Below are positions 1,666 through 61,569 of a stretch of DNA of 64,000 bases, piece after piece. Made by a program: the position numbers and the translations under genes. This stretch comes from Candidatus Microgenomates bacterium (GTDB taxonomy: Bacteria; Patescibacteriota; Microgenomatia; UBA1400; UBA12108), in NCBI GenBank assembly GCA_003576945.1, contig QEVC01000002.1, forward strand, positions 5,792-69,791. Direction: 5' to 3'. The notes under the pieces are model-generated. The model made no database searches, was not told the DNA's origin, and was given only the letters and a program-made list of their open reading frames with translations. Numbering within the stretch: the stretch's first letter is position 1; the number at the start of each line of letters is the position of its first letter.

Positions 1666-2669
1666 AGACTCTCAAACCACCCCAAGTCCCTCGAAACTAC
1701 CATATTCCACTGTGGCCTCATATTATGGTCCGCCCCTGGGTATTCATAATAAGTATAACTTTTATCTTGCTCCTTTAATCTCTCTCCTAGCTCTCGATTC
1801 CACGTAACTGGCACCGCGTCATCCACTGTTCCCTGATGAATTACGAGCGGCATCTCGATCCAATCAAGATATTTATCGATCGAGTATTTAAAAACATCAT
1901 ACTCAGCTTCAAATTTTGCAATCTCGCTCCGTAGCCACTTGCCCTGATCTTCTGCCTCATCTGTATAAAACAGGATGTTATAAGGAAACGGTTTGGACAC
2001 CGGCGCCCAGAGAGTGGCACCTAATACGGATTCACGGCTATACGGATTCACGGATTTACGTTTACCTAGCACCTCTGCCACCGAGAGCATGATCTGTCCC
2101 CCGTTGCTATGTCCCCAGAGATAGACTTTGTTTAAATCTACTTGCGACAAACTCGACAAACTCGCGATTAAGTCCAGGATTTCTACCGGCTTAACCAGTC
2201 TCGCCCCGAGCGCATTTTCATCCTCTTGATCGCTTTCCCCATAACCCGAAAAATCCGGAGCAATAGTAATGTAACCATTCTTAGCATATATAGCCGCGGC
2301 GTTACGGGTCCCTGTGCCAGTCGTATAGCCATCTTTCTCGACATACCCCCTCGCCATCACTATAACCCCTACAGGGTGTAACCCCGTAGGCAGATTTAGC
2401 TGTCCACTAATCCGTCTCCTTTCGCTCTGGTAGTAAAAAACATAGCTACTATACTCGTCTGTCTTTGTAATTTCTCTACCTATCTCAATCTGACTAGCTT
2501 TATCCTCCCGCGCAACTAGTCGCTCAAAACTATACTTCTCGTAAGGTTTCTCCGCCACGGTAGCCTCACCCTGTGGCGAAACCACTCGCTCATTTTGGTT
2601 ACCTAAATAAAACCACGTTCCCACCCCAATCAGAGCTAGCAGGAGGATTAGTCTCACTCCACGTTTCAT
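1662..2669 (-). CDS. secreted alpha/beta-hydrolase (S9/dienelactone-hydrolase-like)
   Basis: N-terminal hydrophobic segment; nucleophile elbow 'GHSNGG'. Contains an ACGGATTC tandem repeat in frame (2024-2066). Confidence 0.55.
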   Translation of the reverse strand: MKRGVRLILLLALIGVGTWFYLGNQNERVVSPQGEATVAEKPYEKYSFERLVAREDKASQIEIGREITKTDEYSSYVFYYQSERRRISGQLNLPTGLHPVGVIVMARGYVEKDGYTTGTGTRNAAAIYAKNGYITIAPDFSGYGESDQEDENALGARLVKPVEILDLIASLSSLSQVDLNKVYLWGHSNGGQIMLSVAEVLGKRKSVNPYSRESVLGATLWAPVSKPFPYNILFYTDEAEDQGKWLRSEIAKFEAEYDVFKYSIDKYLDWIEMPLVIHQGTVDDAVPVTWNRELGERLKEQDKSYTYYEYPGADHNMRPQWNMVVSRDLGWFESL

Positions 2670-3922
2670 TTATCCACCCCCAACCCGAGTACTCGATCCC
2701 ACTCTAGGAGCAGTTCGACTTTGTCGAAGTTTGGGATATTCGACTTTACCATCCCCCAAACAGTCGCGAGCGCTTTTGGCATCGCTAGGTCATTCTCGAT
2801 CGCTGCCCTAAACTCGGCTTGGTATTTTTCTATTTGCTCCATTTTCTCGCTGGACAACGTGGTGCGCTCAGTCTGGTCGCTCTTTAGGTTTTGGTAAGTT
2901 TTGCGGAGTTTGGCAAGCGCTGTGGCCGCTGCGCCGAGGGCCTCCCAGGTAAAGTTAAGCTGCTTGCGGTAGTGGCCAGTTAAGTAAAAGTAGCGCAAAG
3001 CCAAAGGCTCATACCCTCGACTCTCAATCTCGTTCACGGTATATGCGTTCCCGAGTGATTTGCCCATCCTCCCCCCATCAACCAGTAAAAATGCGCCATG
3101 GACCCAGGTCTTAACAAATGGGTGTACCCCCGTTGCCCCCTCAGCTTGCGCGATCTCGTTGGGGTGGTGGGTACTACGGAGGTCCTCCCCTCCCACGTGG
3201 ATATCAAACTGATCCCCTAGGTATTTTGTACTCATGGCCGAACACTCGATATGCCAGCCAGGGAATCCCACTCCCCAGGGTGATCCCCACTCCATATCCC
3301 GCTTCGCTCCACTCTTAGGACTAAATTTCCACAGAGCAAAGTCGCGCGGATCCTTCTTCTCGGGGTTAGGCTCTAGCCGTGCCCCAAACTTGATCTGGTC
3401 GAGCGTCGAGAGCTCACCATACTTTTTCCCCGTTTTTTCGTAGGCTAATACATCAAAATATATCCCATCCCCTATTTTGTATGTCAAATCATTCTTTTCA
3501 AGATCAGAAACCATCGCGATCTGTTCAGGGATATGATCTGTTGCTTTGCATACCACCTCGGGACGCATAATTCCAAGTTTGGTCATATGTACAAAAAATT
3601 CTTGGGCGTACCCCTCACTCACGTCCCACGCACTGCGGCCTTCCTTTTTAGCTGCTTTCTCCAGCCTATCCTCTCCCTGACTACTGTCTCCTTCGTTGTC
3701 GCCCGTCAAATGTCCAACATCAGTCAGATTCATCACGTGAGTCACGTCATATCCGAGATATCGCAAACTCCGGCTCAAAATATCTGATAGTGTGTAAGTC
3801 CGAAAGTTGCCAATGGTAGCTGTCGAGTAGACCGTGGGTCCACAGGTGTACATCCCAACCTTGCCCTGCTCTCTTGGGACTACTTCTTCAACAGTCCTAG
3901 TTAGTGAATTAAATAATTTCAT
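2666..3922 (-). CDS. cysS: cysteinyl-tRNA synthetase
   Basis: 'WHIECSAM' and KMSKS variant 'RMGKSLGN'. The HIGH position reads 'TIGN' (see findings). Confidence 0.9.
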   Translation of the reverse strand: MKLFNSLTRTVEEVVPREQGKVGMYTCGPTVYSTATIGNFRTYTLSDILSRSLRYLGYDVTHVMNLTDVGHLTGDNEGDSSQGEDRLEKAAKKEGRSAWDVSEGYAQEFFVHMTKLGIMRPEVVCKATDHIPEQIAMVSDLEKNDLTYKIGDGIYFDVLAYEKTGKKYGELSTLDQIKFGARLEPNPEKKDPRDFALWKFSPKSGAKRDMEWGSPWGVGFPGWHIECSAMSTKYLGDQFDIHVGGEDLRSTHHPNEIAQAEGATGVHPFVKTWVHGAFLLVDGGRMGKSLGNAYTVNEIESRGYEPLALRYFYLTGHYRKQLNFTWEALGAAATALAKLRKTYQNLKSDQTERTTLSSEKMEQIEKYQAEFRAAIENDLAMPKALATVWGMVKSNIPNFDKVELLLEWDRVLGLGVDK

Positions 3923-3972
3923 AAATTCTCCTCGTTAATTTTACCATCGAATTTATAGGCAAAGTTCACACA

Positions 3973-4470
3973 CTATCCCGCCCCCCAGGCTTTATTTTCC
4001 GCACTCGAACTCTGAGTCGCCGCCTTAAGTCCGATGTCTTCTTGTTGTTTTTTCTGAAACTCAAACTCCTTCTTTTGTTCTTCCTTCTTCTCTTCTATTT
4101 GCTTACGTTGTTCCTCTTTTTGTTCATACTCCATTCTGGCTTTTTGCATCCCACTCTCTATGTTTGTGTCCAAGCCCCACTCGCGCACGAGCTGCTTCCT
4201 GAGCATCTCAATCTCCATTAGATCTTTTTGACCCGACAGGCCCGCATACTTGGCGTAGTCATCTTGGGTTTTAAACCCTGCCTTGGCAAGATCGGTCATC
4301 TGTTGGTTTGCCGGATCATCTCCGGGTGAGTTCGGCTGGGAGGTTTGGCCTTTTTCGTTCTGTACCCCCACCATATCCTTAACCACCTCTACCGGCTCGC
4401 TCGCCACACTCTTCACCACATGCTTAGCGAGTCCCGCCAGATTTTGTCCGACCTGTTTCCACACACTCAT
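3973..4470 (-). CDS. hypothetical coiled-coil protein (KEEQ-rich)
   Basis: 165 aa; low-complexity 'EQKEEQRKQIEEKKEEQKKEFEFQKKQQ'. No recognisable domain. Confidence 0.4.
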   Translation of the reverse strand: MSVWKQVGQNLAGLAKHVVKSVASEPVEVVKDMVGVQNEKGQTSQPNSPGDDPANQQMTDLAKAGFKTQDDYAKYAGLSGQKDLMEIEMLRKQLVREWGLDTNIESGMQKARMEYEQKEEQRKQIEEKKEEQKKEFEFQKKQQEDIGLKAATQSSSAENKAWGAG

Positions 4471-4505
4471 AGATCAACTATAAACTACACGCGAGTCAAA
4501 TTCAC

Positions 4506-4718
4506 TTATCCTAGGTACTGCCGCGCTACCATCAACAACACCAAAATAACCAAAGAATATAGGAGTGTCTTAGTCAAATCCTTCACCACATAGTGACTAG
4601 ATAAGTATCCAAACTCATTCCTGTCTTTTTCTACCTGTTTTTCTGCCACTTTCAAACTAAAATTTTGCAACCTGTATGCTGTCTTAATCTTTTCCTCACG
4701 TGTCTTGGTTCTACTCAT
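4506..4718 (-). CDS. small hypothetical membrane protein
   Basis: 70 aa; C-terminal hydrophobic helix. Overlaps the upstream gene by 8 nt, suggesting an operon. Confidence 0.3.
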   Translation of the reverse strand: MSRTKTREEKIKTAYRLQNFSLKVAEKQVEKDRNEFGYLSSHYVVKDLTKTLLYSLVILVLLMVARQYLG

Positions 4719-5292
4719 CAGTGCCTTCGTTATACTCTTTGTTACTTCTCATATCTTCTTCTATTAGGCGACGCAGGTATACCGCACGCGGCACTCTTTT
4801 ATTCTTTGATATCCAATCTAAATACCTACCTATCCGTGGTGATATAAAAAAGTTAAATCTTACGTCCTGAGCAGTTGAGATGTACTCTAGAGCACTTTTA
4901 ACAACACTCTGAATATCATTTTCATGATATTCGAGTAGAACAAGCTTATCATCTACTCTTCCTCTCAAAAAGAATGGCTCCCGCCCCACTTTATAAAGAG
5001 CCACCACTGGTTTACCAGAATCTAGAGCTTCAGTTAAAATATGACCAACATTTACAGTTGATGGGTACGACAACTCCACAAAAACTGCGTCTGCATTTCT
5101 AACCTTCAACGTAATTTCTTTGTACCATGACTCTATTTGTTGGTTTTCTACAAGATCACTATCCTTCACTCCCGAAAAGAGATGACCAGTAAAAACATCA
5201 ATCTTCTGTGACTTCAACTCATTAACAATCTGCTCGTAATAGGTACCTAACTCATCCTTCTGTGCTGCTGATGCTATAAATACTATTTTCAT
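4711..5292 (-). CDS. nucleoside 2-deoxyribosyltransferase-like (SLOG/DRTase-fold) domain fused to a C-terminal ribbon-helix-helix-like tail
   Basis: N-terminus 'MKIVFIASAA...AVFVELSYPSTVNVGHILTEALDSGKPVVALY' matches the Rossmann-like DRTase pattern. C-terminus 'VPRAVYLRRLIEEDM' resembles an RHH DNA-binding motif. Confidence 0.45.
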   Translation of the reverse strand: MKIVFIASAAQKDELGTYYEQIVNELKSQKIDVFTGHLFSGVKDSDLVENQQIESWYKEITLKVRNADAVFVELSYPSTVNVGHILTEALDSGKPVVALYKVGREPFFLRGRVDDKLVLLEYHENDIQSVVKSALEYISTAQDVRFNFFISPRIGRYLDWISKNKRVPRAVYLRRLIEEDMRSNKEYNEGTDE

Positions 5293-5307
5293 ATATGTCG
5301 TAGTATA

Positions 5308-6339
5308 TCATTTTTTTGTAAAGTCAAAGTAATTTGGATATACCTCGATCTTATCAAATCCTCTTAAGGGCATAAAATCCAAATCAATTACACTATGTGG
5401 AGTCATTTGAGCTAGATCATATTGCGAAGGAGATAGTATCCTAGTATGAAACCCATTATCACCTTTGCGCTCTAATACTCCAACACCCACCCAATGTTTA
5501 GCAACCGAAGTATAAGTACTCCCAATACCGATTGAGTCTTCTTTTGGTAAAGTTGAAAGTATTACCCCGCGACCAAACTTGTCGTTAACAAGTATGTCCT
5601 GAGTAACAGCATACTCATAAAGAACTGCTCTTTTAACTAACCTAATTTTTTGATCATCGGTCGTTTCATGCCAAGGCTCAACTCCATTCCATTTAATATT
5701 TAACCAAGCTCTTCTAATATAGTCTGTTTGCTTTGCTTGATTCCACGAATAAAACCTCTCCTCAGCGTAGGTCATAGCTTTTTGTATCTCTTCTTCATAT
5801 TTAGATCTAGTTCTACCGTCTAGTTCAGTCAGTATATTGATTTTAAAATTATCTGGTAAGTAACGACTAAAGATACTTAGAATTTCCGAAAATCCTACTC
5901 TGTAGGTATCTACTTCTTCTTGCGATAAGTTATTGTGAAGTTGTGGGAGTATAGTTAAAAAATAGTAAGACAAATCAACACCTTGTTTGTATGTAGCGAC
6001 AATCGGTGATAAATACGCAGCTAGATAGACTATATTAAAAAATTCTGCCCAGTTTGGCATAGGTGAAGACTCAACGCGCCATAACTTATAGCATCCTTGA
6101 GCAAAAAATACTCTAATCGGTCGGCACTCCTTGATCGCGTTCGATACCTCTTTATCTACCAATGCCCTACACTCTTCCTCTATACGCCACTTACGATATT
6201 TTTTTGAAAATAATTTTGATTTAATATACTCTTCTAGTCCTACTTTTTTTAGTAAATTTATATCATCCTTACTAGGAATGTAGTTACCACTCTTATGCAA
6301 GAGATCTCTTAGGTAATTATTAGTCAATCCATCTCTCAT
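5308..6339 (-). CDS. hypothetical protein, no recognisable domain
   Basis: 343 aa. Co-directional and tightly spaced with 4711-5292. Immediately 3' of a tRNA-like gene. Confidence 0.4.
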   Translation of the reverse strand: MRDGLTNNYLRDLLHKSGNYIPSKDDINLLKKVGLEEYIKSKLFSKKYRKWRIEEECRALVDKEVSNAIKECRPIRVFFAQGCYKLWRVESSPMPNWAEFFNIVYLAAYLSPIVATYKQGVDLSYYFLTILPQLHNNLSQEEVDTYRVGFSEILSIFSRYLPDNFKINILTELDGRTRSKYEEEIQKAMTYAEERFYSWNQAKQTDYIRRAWLNIKWNGVEPWHETTDDQKIRLVKRAVLYEYAVTQDILVNDKFGRGVILSTLPKEDSIGIGSTYTSVAKHWVGVGVLERKGDNGFHTRILSPSQYDLAQMTPHSVIDLDFMPLRGFDKIEVYPNYFDFTKK

Positions 6340-6344
6340 ATTTG

Positions 6345-6418
6345 AGATGCGAGAAGGATTCGAACCTCCGTCTTTTCGTTTTACAACGAAATGCCTGAAC
6401 CAACTCGGCTATCGCATC
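6345..6418 (-). tRNA. atypical tRNA-like gene (GUA anticodon = Tyr-like, short variable arm, 8-nt anticodon loop or 6-bp stem)
   Basis: Reverse complement gives a perfect 7-bp acceptor stem (GATGCGA/TCGCATC) and T-arm GGAGG-TTCGAAT-CCTTC. The anticodon arm is an 18-nt perfect hairpin TTTCGTTGTAAAACGAAA, one nt longer than canonical. No encoded CCA. Confidence 0.6.
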
Positions 6419-6451
6419 GATTTACACATATTATACTCATTAAAGTGAAAA

Positions 6452-7051
6452 TTATGACACTGCCCTTCTAGTAAGCAGCGCCTGGTGTAATGTAACTTCG
6501 TCGGCATATTCTATCTCAACTCCTGTTGGGAGTCCACGCCCAATCCGTGTAATTATCACATCACATCCATCCAATGCTTGTTTTATGTATAGCGCAGTCG
6601 CCTCCCCCTCCAAGCTCGTATTAGTCGAAAGTATTACCTCTTTTACCCCTCCGCTCTTCACCCGTTTAATTAAGGTGTCAATAAAGAGTTCCTCTGGTCC
6701 CACGTTATTTAGCGGGGAGATTGAGCCATGGAGTACATGATATAGCCCTTTGTAACTCCCTGATTTCTCGAGTGCAATCACATCCTGAAAAGACTCAACC
6801 ACACAAACCAGTGAATTATCTCTAGACTGATCGCTACAAACAGTACACTGATCACTATCAGTTAAGTTGTGGCATATCGTACATAACTTTGTTTGCTTTT
6901 TGAGATTAGTGAGACTCATCCCAAACATCTCGAGGTCTCTCTGAGGCATCCGCAGTAGATAAAAAGCGAGCCGTAGCGCACTGCGCCTACCGATCCCAGG
7001 CAGTTTCTCAAAACTGGATGCTACATCCTCTACAATCTTCGGTAATTTCAT
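6452..7051 (-). CDS. recR: recombination protein RecR
   Basis: HhH 'LPGIGRRSALRLAFYLL', C4 zinc finger 'CTICHNLTDSDQCTVCSD', Toprim region. Start trimmed to an internal Met. Confidence 0.9.
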   Translation of the reverse strand: MKLPKIVEDVASSFEKLPGIGRRSALRLAFYLLRMPQRDLEMFGMSLTNLKKQTKLCTICHNLTDSDQCTVCSDQSRDNSLVCVVESFQDVIALEKSGSYKGLYHVLHGSISPLNNVGPEELFIDTLIKRVKSGGVKEVILSTNTSLEGEATALYIKQALDGCDVIITRIGRGLPTGVEIEYADEVTLHQALLTRRAVS

Positions 7052-7061
7052 CGCAAAAGCT

Positions 7062-7373
7062 CTACTGAGGTTGTCCCCCACCCATTCCACCAAGTAGACC
7101 CTTGAGGCCACCACTCATTTCCTGCAGTTTTTTGGCCGCAATCTGCTGAGATTTCTTGATGGCATCGTTTAGGACTTTAACTAGTCTCTCTTCATATTTA
7201 CCATCGATTGTCACAGTCTGGACTTTTTGATCTGCTGTCATGACTACTCTTATCCCATCTTCCTCAACCTCAATCACTTCTGCTTGCAACTGCTTCTGCA
7301 TCTGTACTGCTTGGTCTCTAATTTGTTTCAATTGTGAAACTTGGCTACCCATCTGTTTAAACTTATCAAACAT
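7062..7373 (-). CDS. ybaB: nucleoid-associated protein YbaB/EbfC
   Basis: 103 aa with a Gly-rich tail; conserved dnaX-ybaB-recR order. Confidence 0.9.
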   Translation of the reverse strand: MFDKFKQMGSQVSQLKQIRDQAVQMQKQLQAEVIEVEEDGIRVVMTADQKVQTVTIDGKYEERLVKVLNDAIKKSQQIAAKKLQEMSGGLKGLLGGMGGGQPQ

Positions 7374-60791: not shown

Positions 60792-60864
60792 GCCAAGATA
60801 GCTCAGTTGGTAGAGCATCCCCATGGTAAGGGGAAGGTCTCGGGTCCGATTCCCGATCTTGGCT
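60792..60864 (+). tRNA. tRNA-Thr (GGT)
   Basis: GCCAAGA..TAGCTCAGTTGGTAGAGC..TCCCC-ATGGTAA-GGGGA..TCGGG-TCCGATT-CCCGA-TCTTGGC. Confidence 0.85.
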
Positions 60865-60867
60865 CAG

Positions 60868-61569
60868 ATGAATCTAGCAGATAAAACTATTCTAATCACA
60901 GGCGCAACCGGCGGAATCGGCAGCGTCCTCTCTCAGAAACTGAAAGATCAAGGCAGTAACGTCATTACCATTGGGCGTGATCCTAATAAGCCAGCGACTT
61001 ATCACGCCGACCTAACCGACCCAATTTCGCGCCAAGAACTAGTTAACCGAATAATTCAGGATTATAAAAAAATCGACATCCTAATTCACAGCGCTGGTGT
61101 TGGTATCTACAAACCACTCTCAGAGATCACTCAATCGGACTGGAATCTTTCCTTCACTTTAAACGTCGAAGCACCATTTTTCCTCACCCAAGCACTATCT
61201 CCAATCTTAGAAAAATCAAGTGACTCCCTAGTCTTAACCATTGGCTCAGGCGCAGGCACAATCCCCATGCGAGGACGCAGCCTCTACTGTGCAACCAAAT
61301 TTGCTCTCCGTGGACTCATGCTCTCGCTCGCTGAAGAATCTCGAAACACCCATCCCTCCTACTGCCTTATAACCCTTGGCTCTACCCTGACGCCATTTGG
61401 TCCTCTCTCACTGGATAAAAAAGTTGAAGAAAGTTTAAATGGTAAGGCCTACTTCACCCCAGAATGGGTCGCCAATAAGCTGGTTGAGATCATGCAAAAT
61501 GACGACCGGGAAGATGAGATCACCCTTTTTCCTGGCGACTATGGCTTTGGTGAGTGGAAAAAGCCATAA
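60868..61569 (+). CDS. short-chain dehydrogenase/reductase (SDR)
   Basis: 'ILITGATGGIGSVLSQKL' and catalytic 'YCATKFALRGL'. Start trimmed so as not to overlap tRNA-Thr. Confidence 0.8.
   Translation: MNLADKTILITGATGGIGSVLSQKLKDQGSNVITIGRDPNKPATYHADLTDPISRQELVNRIIQDYKKIDILIHSAGVGIYKPLSEITQSDWNLSFTLNVEAPFFLTQALSPILEKSSDSLVLTIGSGAGTIPMRGRSLYCATKFALRGLMLSLAEESRNTHPSYCLITLGSTLTPFGPLSLDKKVEESLNGKAYFTPEWVANKLVEIMQNDDREDEITLFPGDYGFGEWKKP

Follow-up and report, generated by a model that had tools for sequence, protein, structure and literature searches.

Anatomy of the locus

The stretch of DNA analysed here, 64,000 nt from a member of the Microgenomates (Candidate Phyla Radiation, CPR) and called the window throughout, encodes on its minus strand, between recR and cysS, a tRNA-like gene followed by four co-directional protein-coding genes with products of 343, 193, 70 and 165 amino acids (aa). 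We refer to the four genes by these lengths, and to the loci compared with the window by labels of the form L001, L006 and L007. A preliminary description, made from the letters of the window alone, had delineated the same four genes between cysS and an atypical tRNA-like gene, and all five were recovered at the coordinates listed below, including the 8-nt overlap between the 70-aa and 193-aa genes, whose adjacency is kept in relatives. The neighbourhood is the usual compact CPR set (S21, yqeY, ybeY, dnaX, ybaB, recR and cysS). In the direction of transcription, the features of the region are as follows.

6452-7114: recR, flanking the block on the tRNA side (open reading frame (ORF) list)
6456..6482, minus strand: terminator-like hairpin with a T-rich tail at the end of recR (consensus scan only)
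6430..6435, minus strand: TATAAT -10 box, 11 nt 5' of the tRNA start (sequence read directly)
6344..6418, minus strand: tRNA-Cys-derived gene (ARAGORN, Rfam, covariance model R1)
5308..6339, minus strand: 343-aa predicted member of the isonitrile synthase (IsnA/PvcA/Dit1, PF05141) superfamily (fold and family profile)
4711..5292, minus strand: 193-aa protein, DNPH1/Rcl/NDT-like at the N-terminus and ribbon-helix-helix (RHH)-like at the C-terminus (profile and fold)
4506..4718, minus strand: 70-aa protein with a hydrophobic C-terminal segment, TLLYSLVILVLLMVA (ORF and synteny)
3973..4470, minus strand: 165-aa Glu/Lys-rich protein (ORF; lies between the 70-aa gene and cysS in relatives)
2666..3922, minus strand: cysS, encoding a 418-aa cysteinyl-tRNA synthetase, CysRS (ORF and domain comparison)

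Taken as single sequences, the four proteins returned nothing significant from Pfam, NCBIfam, PHROGs or PADLOC, with the 165-aa protein lacking any family match in Pfam and NCBIfam, and the gene set matches no described system, as had been proposed. The hairpin at 6456..6482 is the sole terminator-like site on the minus strand of the region, located just past recR, and by its sequence marks the likely end of the upstream transcription unit; the consensus scan detected no minus-strand terminator-like site from the tRNA through to cysS. The TATAAT box at 6430..6435, which the promoter scan of the region did not list, is kept in L007 and L008 (TATAAT) and in L001 (TATAAA), and is a putative promoter of a transcript spanning the tRNA and the 343-aa gene.

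A tRNA-Cys-derived gene with an aberrant anticodon loop

The tRNA-like gene is called by both ARAGORN, which places it at 6344-6418(-) with a 4-base 'anticodon' gtaa, and Rfam (tRNA score of 58 bits, E 4e-11). It folds into a full cloverleaf with the acceptor stem GAUGCGA/UCGCAUC and the discriminator U73, and scores 73 bits with a tRNA-Cys covariance model (R1, built on 32 canonical copies), as compared to at most 47 bits for other tRNAs. The anticodon loop is 8 nt long (UUGUAAAA), with GUA in place of GCA and one extra A. In L001 the same position is occupied by an ordinary tRNA-Cys(GCA) with the 7-nt loop UUGCAAA, of which the window gene is the ortholog; what the preliminary description had called atypical is a tRNA-Cys with an aberrant anticodon loop. 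Since the identical sequence is present in four further independent assemblies, the aberrant loop is no assembly error, and with an 8-nt loop carrying GUA the tRNA-Cys derivative is unlikely to decode Cys codons. Two further Rfam candidates in the region, MIR5285 and Plastid-ycf2, score far below threshold and were rejected, the latter being the antisense strand of the tRNA.

The tRNA and the 343-aa gene form a conserved module

We compared 26 genome and 38 metagenome loci encoding homologs of the 343-aa protein. ARAGORN detected a same-strand tRNA-Cys or Cys-like gene directly upstream of the 343-aa homolog in 40 of the 62 loci with upstream sequence, and the covariance model added copies that ARAGORN had missed (L062, L054 and L033, as well as, weakly, L026 and L056). 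The covariance model scored 65 bits or more at 41 sites in 60 loci drawn from several CPR phyla, and each of these sites immediately precedes a gene for a 343-aa homolog. The link spans 28-100% identity of the 343-aa proteins, and the genes that flank the pair vary with the lineage. In L006, L073 and L074, which are without the 343-aa gene, we detected no Cys-type tRNA. Because the tRNA and the 343-aa gene are present or absent together with differing flanks, the pair behaves as a unit, and we consider with high confidence that it is a conserved, selected module. Our literature search found no description of a CPR module of tRNA-Cys with an IsnA-like gene, or of the 343-aa family.

The two members of the module virtually abut. 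The ATG of the 343-aa gene in the window is 4 nt past the tRNA end called by ARAGORN, the first in-frame ATG follows the tRNA end by 0-9 nt in 35 of 40 distinct cases, and in L048 and L049 the encoded CCA even shares its A with the ATG. A gap of 0-9 nt leaves no room for a Shine-Dalgarno site. The background is different: these loci contain 21 further tRNAs, 17 of them followed by an ORF, and the gap is at least 20 nt in 16 of these 17. The sole short-gap exception is the tRNA-Thr(GGT) of the window (60792-60865), where ORF 60823-61569 (+) starts inside the tRNA; the start of this ORF is probably over-extended, with the true start located further downstream. To our knowledge, the junction between tRNA-Cys and the 343-aa gene is among the tightest and best-conserved tRNA–ORF junctions in bacteria.

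The linked tRNAs covary as structured RNAs would: 98.7% of alignment cells are paired, with changes on both sides in 15 of 21 pairs. None of the 39 distinct sequences deviates in the first four pairs of the acceptor stem or in U73, and the next position, C74, is conserved as well.

Two minor observations concern the same junction. At 6330-6350 (-) of the window, a perfect inverted repeat of 6 nt surrounds the start codon, one arm being the 3' strand of the acceptor (CATCTC) and the other the beginning of the ORF (ATGAGAGATGG); it is partial in L007, there is none in L008, and by this comparison it is probably incidental. Furthermore, L034 contains a second odd tRNA (L034:4504-4576, called 'tRNA-???' with a 2-base anticodon) 1.3 kb upstream of the module, the sequence of which is not Cys-type.

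The anticodon arm decays and the tRNA body is retained

Aberrant anticodon loops are not confined to the window. L007 and L008 have the loops UUGCAAAA and UUAUAUAAA, respectively, and in two other loci the anticodon arm is capped by a tetraloop: UGCU in L045:2759-2831 and GGAA in L050:2884-2959. The Saccharibacteria elements L026 and L056 (L026:4570-4641) are degenerate, keeping the acceptor stem, U73 and CCA and having lost the canonical D-loop, T-loop and anticodon (34 bits), and in L021:5930-5985 only a 3' remnant persists beside the ATG, with no complete tRNA-like match. With the exception of L026, L056 and L021, the aberrant copies still score 65-76 bits. At least four lineages show decay in the anticodon arm alone, with fully paired bodies, and this restriction to the decoding part suggests that the tRNA body is under selection for some function other than decoding that is connected with the gene downstream. 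Such losses of the anticodon loop from a tRNA that is otherwise kept amount to natural "experiments", and point to a non-decoding role of the tRNA body, either as a processing handle in cis or as a substrate of the enzyme.

CysRS varies in the same lineage. In the window and L007 the enzyme is 417-418 aa long and is without the C-terminal DALR_2/CysS_C anticodon-binding region, a part that L001, L006 and L073 have in their 472-485-aa enzymes. The short form is reproduced in four independent assemblies and occurs in the lineage in which the linked tRNA-Cys is aberrant. The co-occurrence is worth noting as a coincidence within a single lineage, not as a proven correlation.

A predicted distant branch of the isonitrile synthase superfamily

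The 343-aa protein had been described as devoid of recognisable motifs. This holds for the single sequence, as the window protein has no Pfam match of its own; at the level of the family it does not. With 35 close homologs, the family expands in a profile search to 446 clusters at 50% identity, found in Levyibacteriota, WWE3, Kerfeldbacteria, Saccharibacteria, Paceibacterota and other Patescibacteria, as well as in Myxococcus and Corallococcus. The AF2 model of the protein (pLDDT 92, pTM 0.91) has as its top seven Foldseek matches in the Protein Data Bank (PDB) the isonitrile synthases PIsnA (9DHM, 9DH4) and PvcA (3E59), with E values of 1e-8 to 1e-6; the superposition covers the whole chain (about 335 columns, TM 0.58-0.69) at about 14% identity. 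A narrow profile of the close family (A2) found no solved structure, and the broader alignment A3 was required: a profile of 61 diverse members matched 9dh4 (E 6e-7) and 3e59 (E 1.6e-3), with an alignment that spans the PI..P.(F/G)..K (PI..P.G.YK) and D(W)AE / D.AE motifs, and PF05141 is matched individually by 31 of the 61 members (best 7e-9). Two motifs, SKKFRKW and GSTxTSxAKHWVGxGVLE, are invariant in the family itself. Following the IsnA matches at much lower scores (TM 0.25-0.32, E 1e-3 to 3e-2) are tyrosyl- and tryptophanyl-tRNA synthetases (TyrRS/TrpRS) and cyclodipeptide synthases (CDPS); the sequence contains no HxGH or KMSKS motif, and the likeness to class I aminoacyl-tRNA synthetases (aaRS) and CDPS is partial, at the level of the Rossmann fold.

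Judged by modelled fold and family profile, the 343-aa protein is a distant, uncharacterised branch of the IsnA/PvcA/Dit1 superfamily, and from this membership it is predicted to modify the α-amino group of an amino acid. Enzymes of the IsnA type combine the α-nitrogen of free Tyr or Trp with a carbon from ribulose-5-phosphate (PMC7949033). The 343-aa family resembles IsnA, PvcA and Dit1 in its full-length fold, in its motif-bearing profile and in the natural-product (polyketide synthase, PKS) context of its myxobacterial members. It differs from them in its own invariant motifs, in that its gene is joined to tRNA-Cys in CPR, and in that it is without a recurrent partner oxygenase: neither a dioxygenase of the IsnB/PvcB type nor a P450 of the Dit2 type is a repeated neighbour of the 343-aa gene, and the window contains no oxygenase. 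Bacteria with the minimal genomes of CPR are not expected to devote genes to secondary metabolism, and yet a widespread branch of the isonitrile synthase/Dit1 superfamily, with about 450 clusters at 50% identity, sits in just such genomes.

Two other genes do recur beside the 343-aa gene, encoding an EamA-type transporter in 13 loci and a TrmB-like regulator in 9, and the window has neither. In CPR lineages other than that of the window, the transporter gene (L011:7023-7886 and 12 further loci) is located on the opposite strand just downstream of the module of tRNA-Cys and the 343-aa gene, and the regulator gene (L027:4174-4935 and 8 other loci) adjoins such modules; from this arrangement, the two could be the exporter and the regulator of the product of the 343-aa enzyme. 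In Myxococcus and Corallococcus (L018:161-7041, L020:197-7044 and L022), a 343-aa homolog (32-34% identity) is encoded directly downstream of a type I PKS of 1,898 aa with the domain order KS-AT-KR-DH-ACP, next to two large proteins without a Pfam match. By its gene content, this may be an uncharacterised biosynthetic cluster.

A model for expression of the 343-aa protein by tRNA processing

We propose that the tRNA(-like) RNA serves to process the message of the 343-aa gene. Transcription from the putative promoter that follows the recR terminator would yield the tRNA-Cys-derived gene and the 343-aa mRNA as one transcript. RNase P, acting at the 5' end, and a 3' endonuclease, acting at the acceptor end, would cut the tRNA(-like) RNA out, and this processing would free a 343-aa mRNA with a leader of at most 10 nt, to be translated leaderless. 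As the tRNA body would be required in cis for processing, it would be kept where the anticodon loop has decayed, as in the window. We hold expression by tRNA processing into a near-leaderless mRNA with moderate confidence, and assign a probability of roughly 0.55 to the complete reading, in which such processing takes place within a conserved gene block and the 343-aa enzyme and the 193-aa sensor have the roles proposed here. L003 and L060, two loci without a linked tRNA, have a -10 box whose end is 6-7 nt upstream of the ATG, so that a leaderless mRNA is predicted there, which fits leaderless expression of the 343-aa family.

Several points weigh against this model. From the observed anatomy, homologies, synteny, tRNA–ORF coupling and anticodon decay we infer co-transcription, the cleavage site and leaderless translation alike. 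A suitably placed -10 box is present in some of the tRNA-less loci only. An exonucleolytic 3' pathway would destroy the 0-9 nt leader, and C74 is conserved after U73. Finally, a pure processing signal would need no conserved acceptor-stem sequence, and the first four base pairs and U73 persist even in the degenerate Saccharibacteria element; recognition by CysRS or by the enzyme would account for this invariance no less well. The processing model covers the short gap and the fact that the tRNA body is kept, not the invariance of the acceptor stem and U73.

The best-surviving alternative takes up precisely this invariance. The tRNA-Cys(-like) RNA, cysteinylated by CysRS, would be reserved for the 343-aa enzyme as its substrate or cofactor, the enzyme either acting on the charged RNA or drawing its amino acid from it, and an RNA that had lost its anticodon loop would be barred from translation. 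Consistent with such a role, the link is exclusively to tRNA-Cys over the whole 28-100% range of protein identity with changing flanks; the first four acceptor base pairs, U73 and in some cases CCA are retained even where anticodon, D-loop and T-loop are gone; the slot next to recR gains or loses the tRNA and the enzyme gene jointly; the next-best fold matches after IsnA are TyrRS/TrpRS and CDPS; and the window clade, with its aberrant loops, has a CysRS without the C-terminal anticodon-binding domain. Other points weigh against it. The characterised IsnA/PvcA/Dit1 enzymes use free Tyr or Trp and ribulose-5-phosphate (PMC7949033), the likeness to aaRS and CDPS is weak (TM of about 0.3), and the CysRS correlation comes from one lineage. 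Homologs without an adjacent tRNA (Myxococcus, Kerfeldbacteria and L003) keep all the motifs, including SKKFRKW; since this motif does not track tRNA linkage, it provides no support for RNA binding. Moreover, a functional link alone would not demand a spacing of 0-9 nt. We consider the probability of a substrate role low but not negligible. Its fully specified form, a two-part CPR system in which a CysRS-charged tRNA-Cys-derived RNA, non-decoding in several lineages, is acted on by the 343-aa enzyme or supplies its cysteine to it, we regard as somewhat less probable still; if true, it would reveal a new branch of the IsnA/Dit1 superfamily that depends on tRNA, and also a new use of a tRNA outside translation. 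The processing and substrate models are not mutually exclusive.

Both have parallels among known systems. In mitochondrial 'tRNA punctuation' and in the t-elements of plant mitochondria, tRNAs or tRNA-like structures act as mRNA end-processing signals. As there, a tRNA(-like) structure abuts the ORF in our loci, with a leader of 0-9 nt, and non-decoding versions are retained; the differences are that the genome is a bacterial one of free-living type, that one gene family and one tRNA species are concerned, and that processing is a prediction. Our literature search found no bacterial precedent for a leaderless mRNA released by a tRNA, and with the fusion of tRNA-Cys to the 343-aa gene, tRNA-punctuated and leaderless expression becomes testable outside organelles. 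For the substrate model, the parallels are CDPS, which use aminoacyl-tRNAs, and Fem transferases, which likewise do so, with a non-proteinogenic tRNA-Gly. Shared with these is a specific tRNA species tied to an enzyme, in some cases unable to decode, and the fold of the 343-aa protein is weakly CDPS/TyrRS-like; unlike CDPS and Fem transferases, the closest structural relatives of the 343-aa protein use free amino acids, and the use of RNA here is hypothetical. Either outcome would inform both gene expression in CPR and the recruitment of tRNAs to new functions.

A predicted nucleotide-sensing regulator encoded downstream

The second gene of the block encodes a protein for which a nucleoside-deoxyribosyltransferase-type Rossmann domain and an RHH-like C-terminal tail had been suggested. 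The family is very conserved, with at least 286 members, and the best match of the window protein is a protein from a metagenome-assembled genome (MAG) of Microgenomates. The Rossmann domain stands up well: the family profile matches Rcl/DNPH1 over residues 3-136 (E 2.7e-11), and the AF2 model (pLDDT 83) retrieves DNPH1/Rcl with Foldseek at E 1e-7, TMt 0.7-0.81 and 22-25% identity. The window protein has no Pfam match at E<=1, and relatives at no more than 61% identity pass PF05014 (34.6 bits for L006, with a cut-off of 28.8). The alignment attributes this failure of the window protein to the replacement of the catalytic Glu in its subclade. Opposite the nucleophile of Rcl, Glu93 in GYELG, the distant half of the family has GHELT, and the window protein and its whole close subclade have GHILT (G83-H84-I85, with Ile85 at the catalytic site); among 120 homologs the site is Glu in 58 and Ile, Leu or Val in 61. 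Throughout the family, Val/Thr stands in place of Rcl Tyr13 and Val/Ser in place of Asp69, and Ser78 of the phosphate-binding P-S motif, His84 and Glu73 are invariant.

The best-conserved part of the protein is its C-terminal 50 residues (RFNFFISP…PRAVYLRRLIEEDM). The RHH-like assignment of this part is plausible, as RHH_3 matches the same C-terminal site in three relatives, and these matches are all sub-threshold (E 0.0018-0.06; 14-19 bits, where the cut-off is 21.6), with nothing for the window sequence itself.

We regard it as probable, by inference from sequence, that the 193-aa protein is a DNA-binding regulator sensing nucleotides or nucleotide monophosphates, similar to NrdR or PyrR, and not an enzyme or defence effector. 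The reading follows from the Ile at the site of the catalytic Glu, and the neighbours of the gene in relatives belong to nucleotide metabolism (AAA_33 kinase, NUDIX, PfkB and ThyA). Weighing against it, the RHH assignment draws on sub-threshold matches only, the AF2 monomer has the two C-terminal helices and not the RHH strand, and hhalign of the C-terminus against Arc, Mnt and CopG gave no support, although this was a weak test.

The competing view, in which the protein is no regulator and acts in nucleotide salvage as an active nucleoside 2-deoxyribosyltransferase or dNMP N-glycosidase, can draw on the homology to DNPH1/Rcl, on the invariant Ser78, on the retention of Glu in half of the family and on the salvage-type character of the AAA_33, PfkB, NUDIX and ThyA neighbours. 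It is hard to reconcile with Ile at the nucleophile position of the whole window subclade, with the family-wide Val/Thr and Val/Ser at the Tyr13 and Asp69 equivalents, and with conservation being highest in the C-terminal RHH-like module, and we consider it improbable.

A sensing role would have well-known counterparts: NrdR, PyrR and PurR are nucleotide-sensing repressors built from enzyme-like domains. Like them, the 193-aa protein joins an enzyme-derived nucleotide-binding domain to a small DNA-binding-like module and is encoded near nucleotide-metabolism genes; it differs from them in its domain pair, DNPH1-like and RHH-like, with ligand and DNA binding both predicted. With DNPH1/Rcl and the nucleoside 2-deoxyribosyltransferases (PF05014) it shares the Rossmann-like fold and the P-S phosphate-binding motif, and it departs from DNPH1/Rcl in having Ile85 for the catalytic Glu (window subclade), in being without equivalents of Tyr13 and Asp69 (whole family) and in adding the invariant 50-residue RHH-like extension. 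With its combination of DNPH1-like and RHH-like parts, the protein may represent a new class of regulators that sense nucleotides.

A conserved gene block with one variable slot

In L001, L007, L008 and L009 (54-80% identity of the 343-aa protein) the gene order is recR, tRNA, 343-aa, 193-aa, 70-aa and 165-aa genes, cysS and a hydrolase gene. In the more distant Microgenomates locus L006 and in L073 from Collierbacteria it is recR, AAA_33 kinase, 193-aa, 70-aa and 165/173-aa genes and cysS, and in the still more distant L074 it is thyA, recR, NUDIX, radical SAM, 193-aa gene, PfkB, a second 193-like gene, a 170-aa gene, PIG-L and cysS. The block of 193-aa, 70-aa and 165-aa genes lies between recR and cysS in every relative examined for it (L001, L006, L007, L009 and L073). 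The variable part is solely the slot between recR and the 193-aa gene, which holds either the AAA_33 kinase gene or tRNA-Cys and the 343-aa gene together.

Against this background, the adjacency of tRNA and ORF might be seen as inherited synteny without a mechanism, with the aberrant tRNAs as pseudogenes and a functional tRNA-Cys encoded elsewhere. Compact CPR genomes do retain old gene orders and, since Cys codons are in use (RecR zinc finger), a canonical tRNA-Cys is to be expected elsewhere in the genome. This explanation leaves the 0-9 nt junction, kept while the flanks shuffle, unaccounted for, and neutral decay would have struck the stems too, whereas the aberrant bodies are fully paired, score 65-76 bits and have decayed solely in the anticodon arm in at least four lineages. 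It appears to us a little less probable than catalytic activity of the 193-aa protein.

The preliminary description had read the region as an accessory islet integrated at the 3' end of the tRNA. Two features speak in favour: a dip in GC content over the 343-aa and 193-aa genes (GC 0.36-0.38 and GC at third codon positions, GC3, of 0.29-0.33, with flanks at about 0.45-0.55), and the different content of the slot between recR and the 193-aa gene in different lineages (tRNA and 343-aa gene, or kinase). L001, L009 and L073 show the GC3 dip in their orthologous genes too, and in the slot-filling kinase gene, and a low GC3 common to orthologs of distant relatives is no sign of recent transfer. We detected no integrase, recombinase or transposase among the ORFs between recR and cysS. 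The att search found no second copy in the window of the 22-mer at the 3' end of the tRNA, allowing up to 3 mismatches, and there are no relevant repeats of at least 12 nt within 3800-6500. Where the 343-aa gene is missing (L006 and L073) the tRNA is missing too, contrary to what cargo of an island would give: the tRNA is part of the variable unit, not the target of integration.

The same description had paired the 193-aa protein with the 343-aa protein in a candidate conflict or nucleotide-modifying system. PADLOC-DB returned short partial matches only (CARF3, E 0.0016; PDC-S31, E 0.0023; DndF, E 0.029), none of them significant. The 343-aa and 193-aa genes are each widespread without the other and are therefore neither a system nor an obligate pair. 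With the 193-70-165 block syntenic with cysS across the lineage, as far as the Collierbacteria (L073), we have high confidence that the region is a conserved co-directional gene block of Microgenomates and not an acquired islet or a defence system. A mobile islet at the tRNA 3' end, housing a conflict, defence or nucleotide-modifying system of a DRTase/SLOG-like protein and its 343-aa partner, is accordingly very improbable, the DNPH1/NDT-type fold of the 193-aa protein and the variable slot notwithstanding, given that recombinase and att-like repeat are lacking, that the PADLOC matches are partial (E 0.0016-0.03), that the low GC3 is shared with orthologs, that the two genes mostly occur apart, that the tRNA belongs to the variable unit and that the synteny of the block with cysS already contradicts it. 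Conserved core synteny makes the defence-islet version uninteresting; it is the module of tRNA-Cys and the IsnA-like gene, with its anticodon-less variants, that merits follow-up.

One of the compared loci shows a further arrangement of the block: in L074:5001-7162, two paralogous genes for DNPH1-like/RHH-like proteins stand on either side of the PfkB kinase gene.

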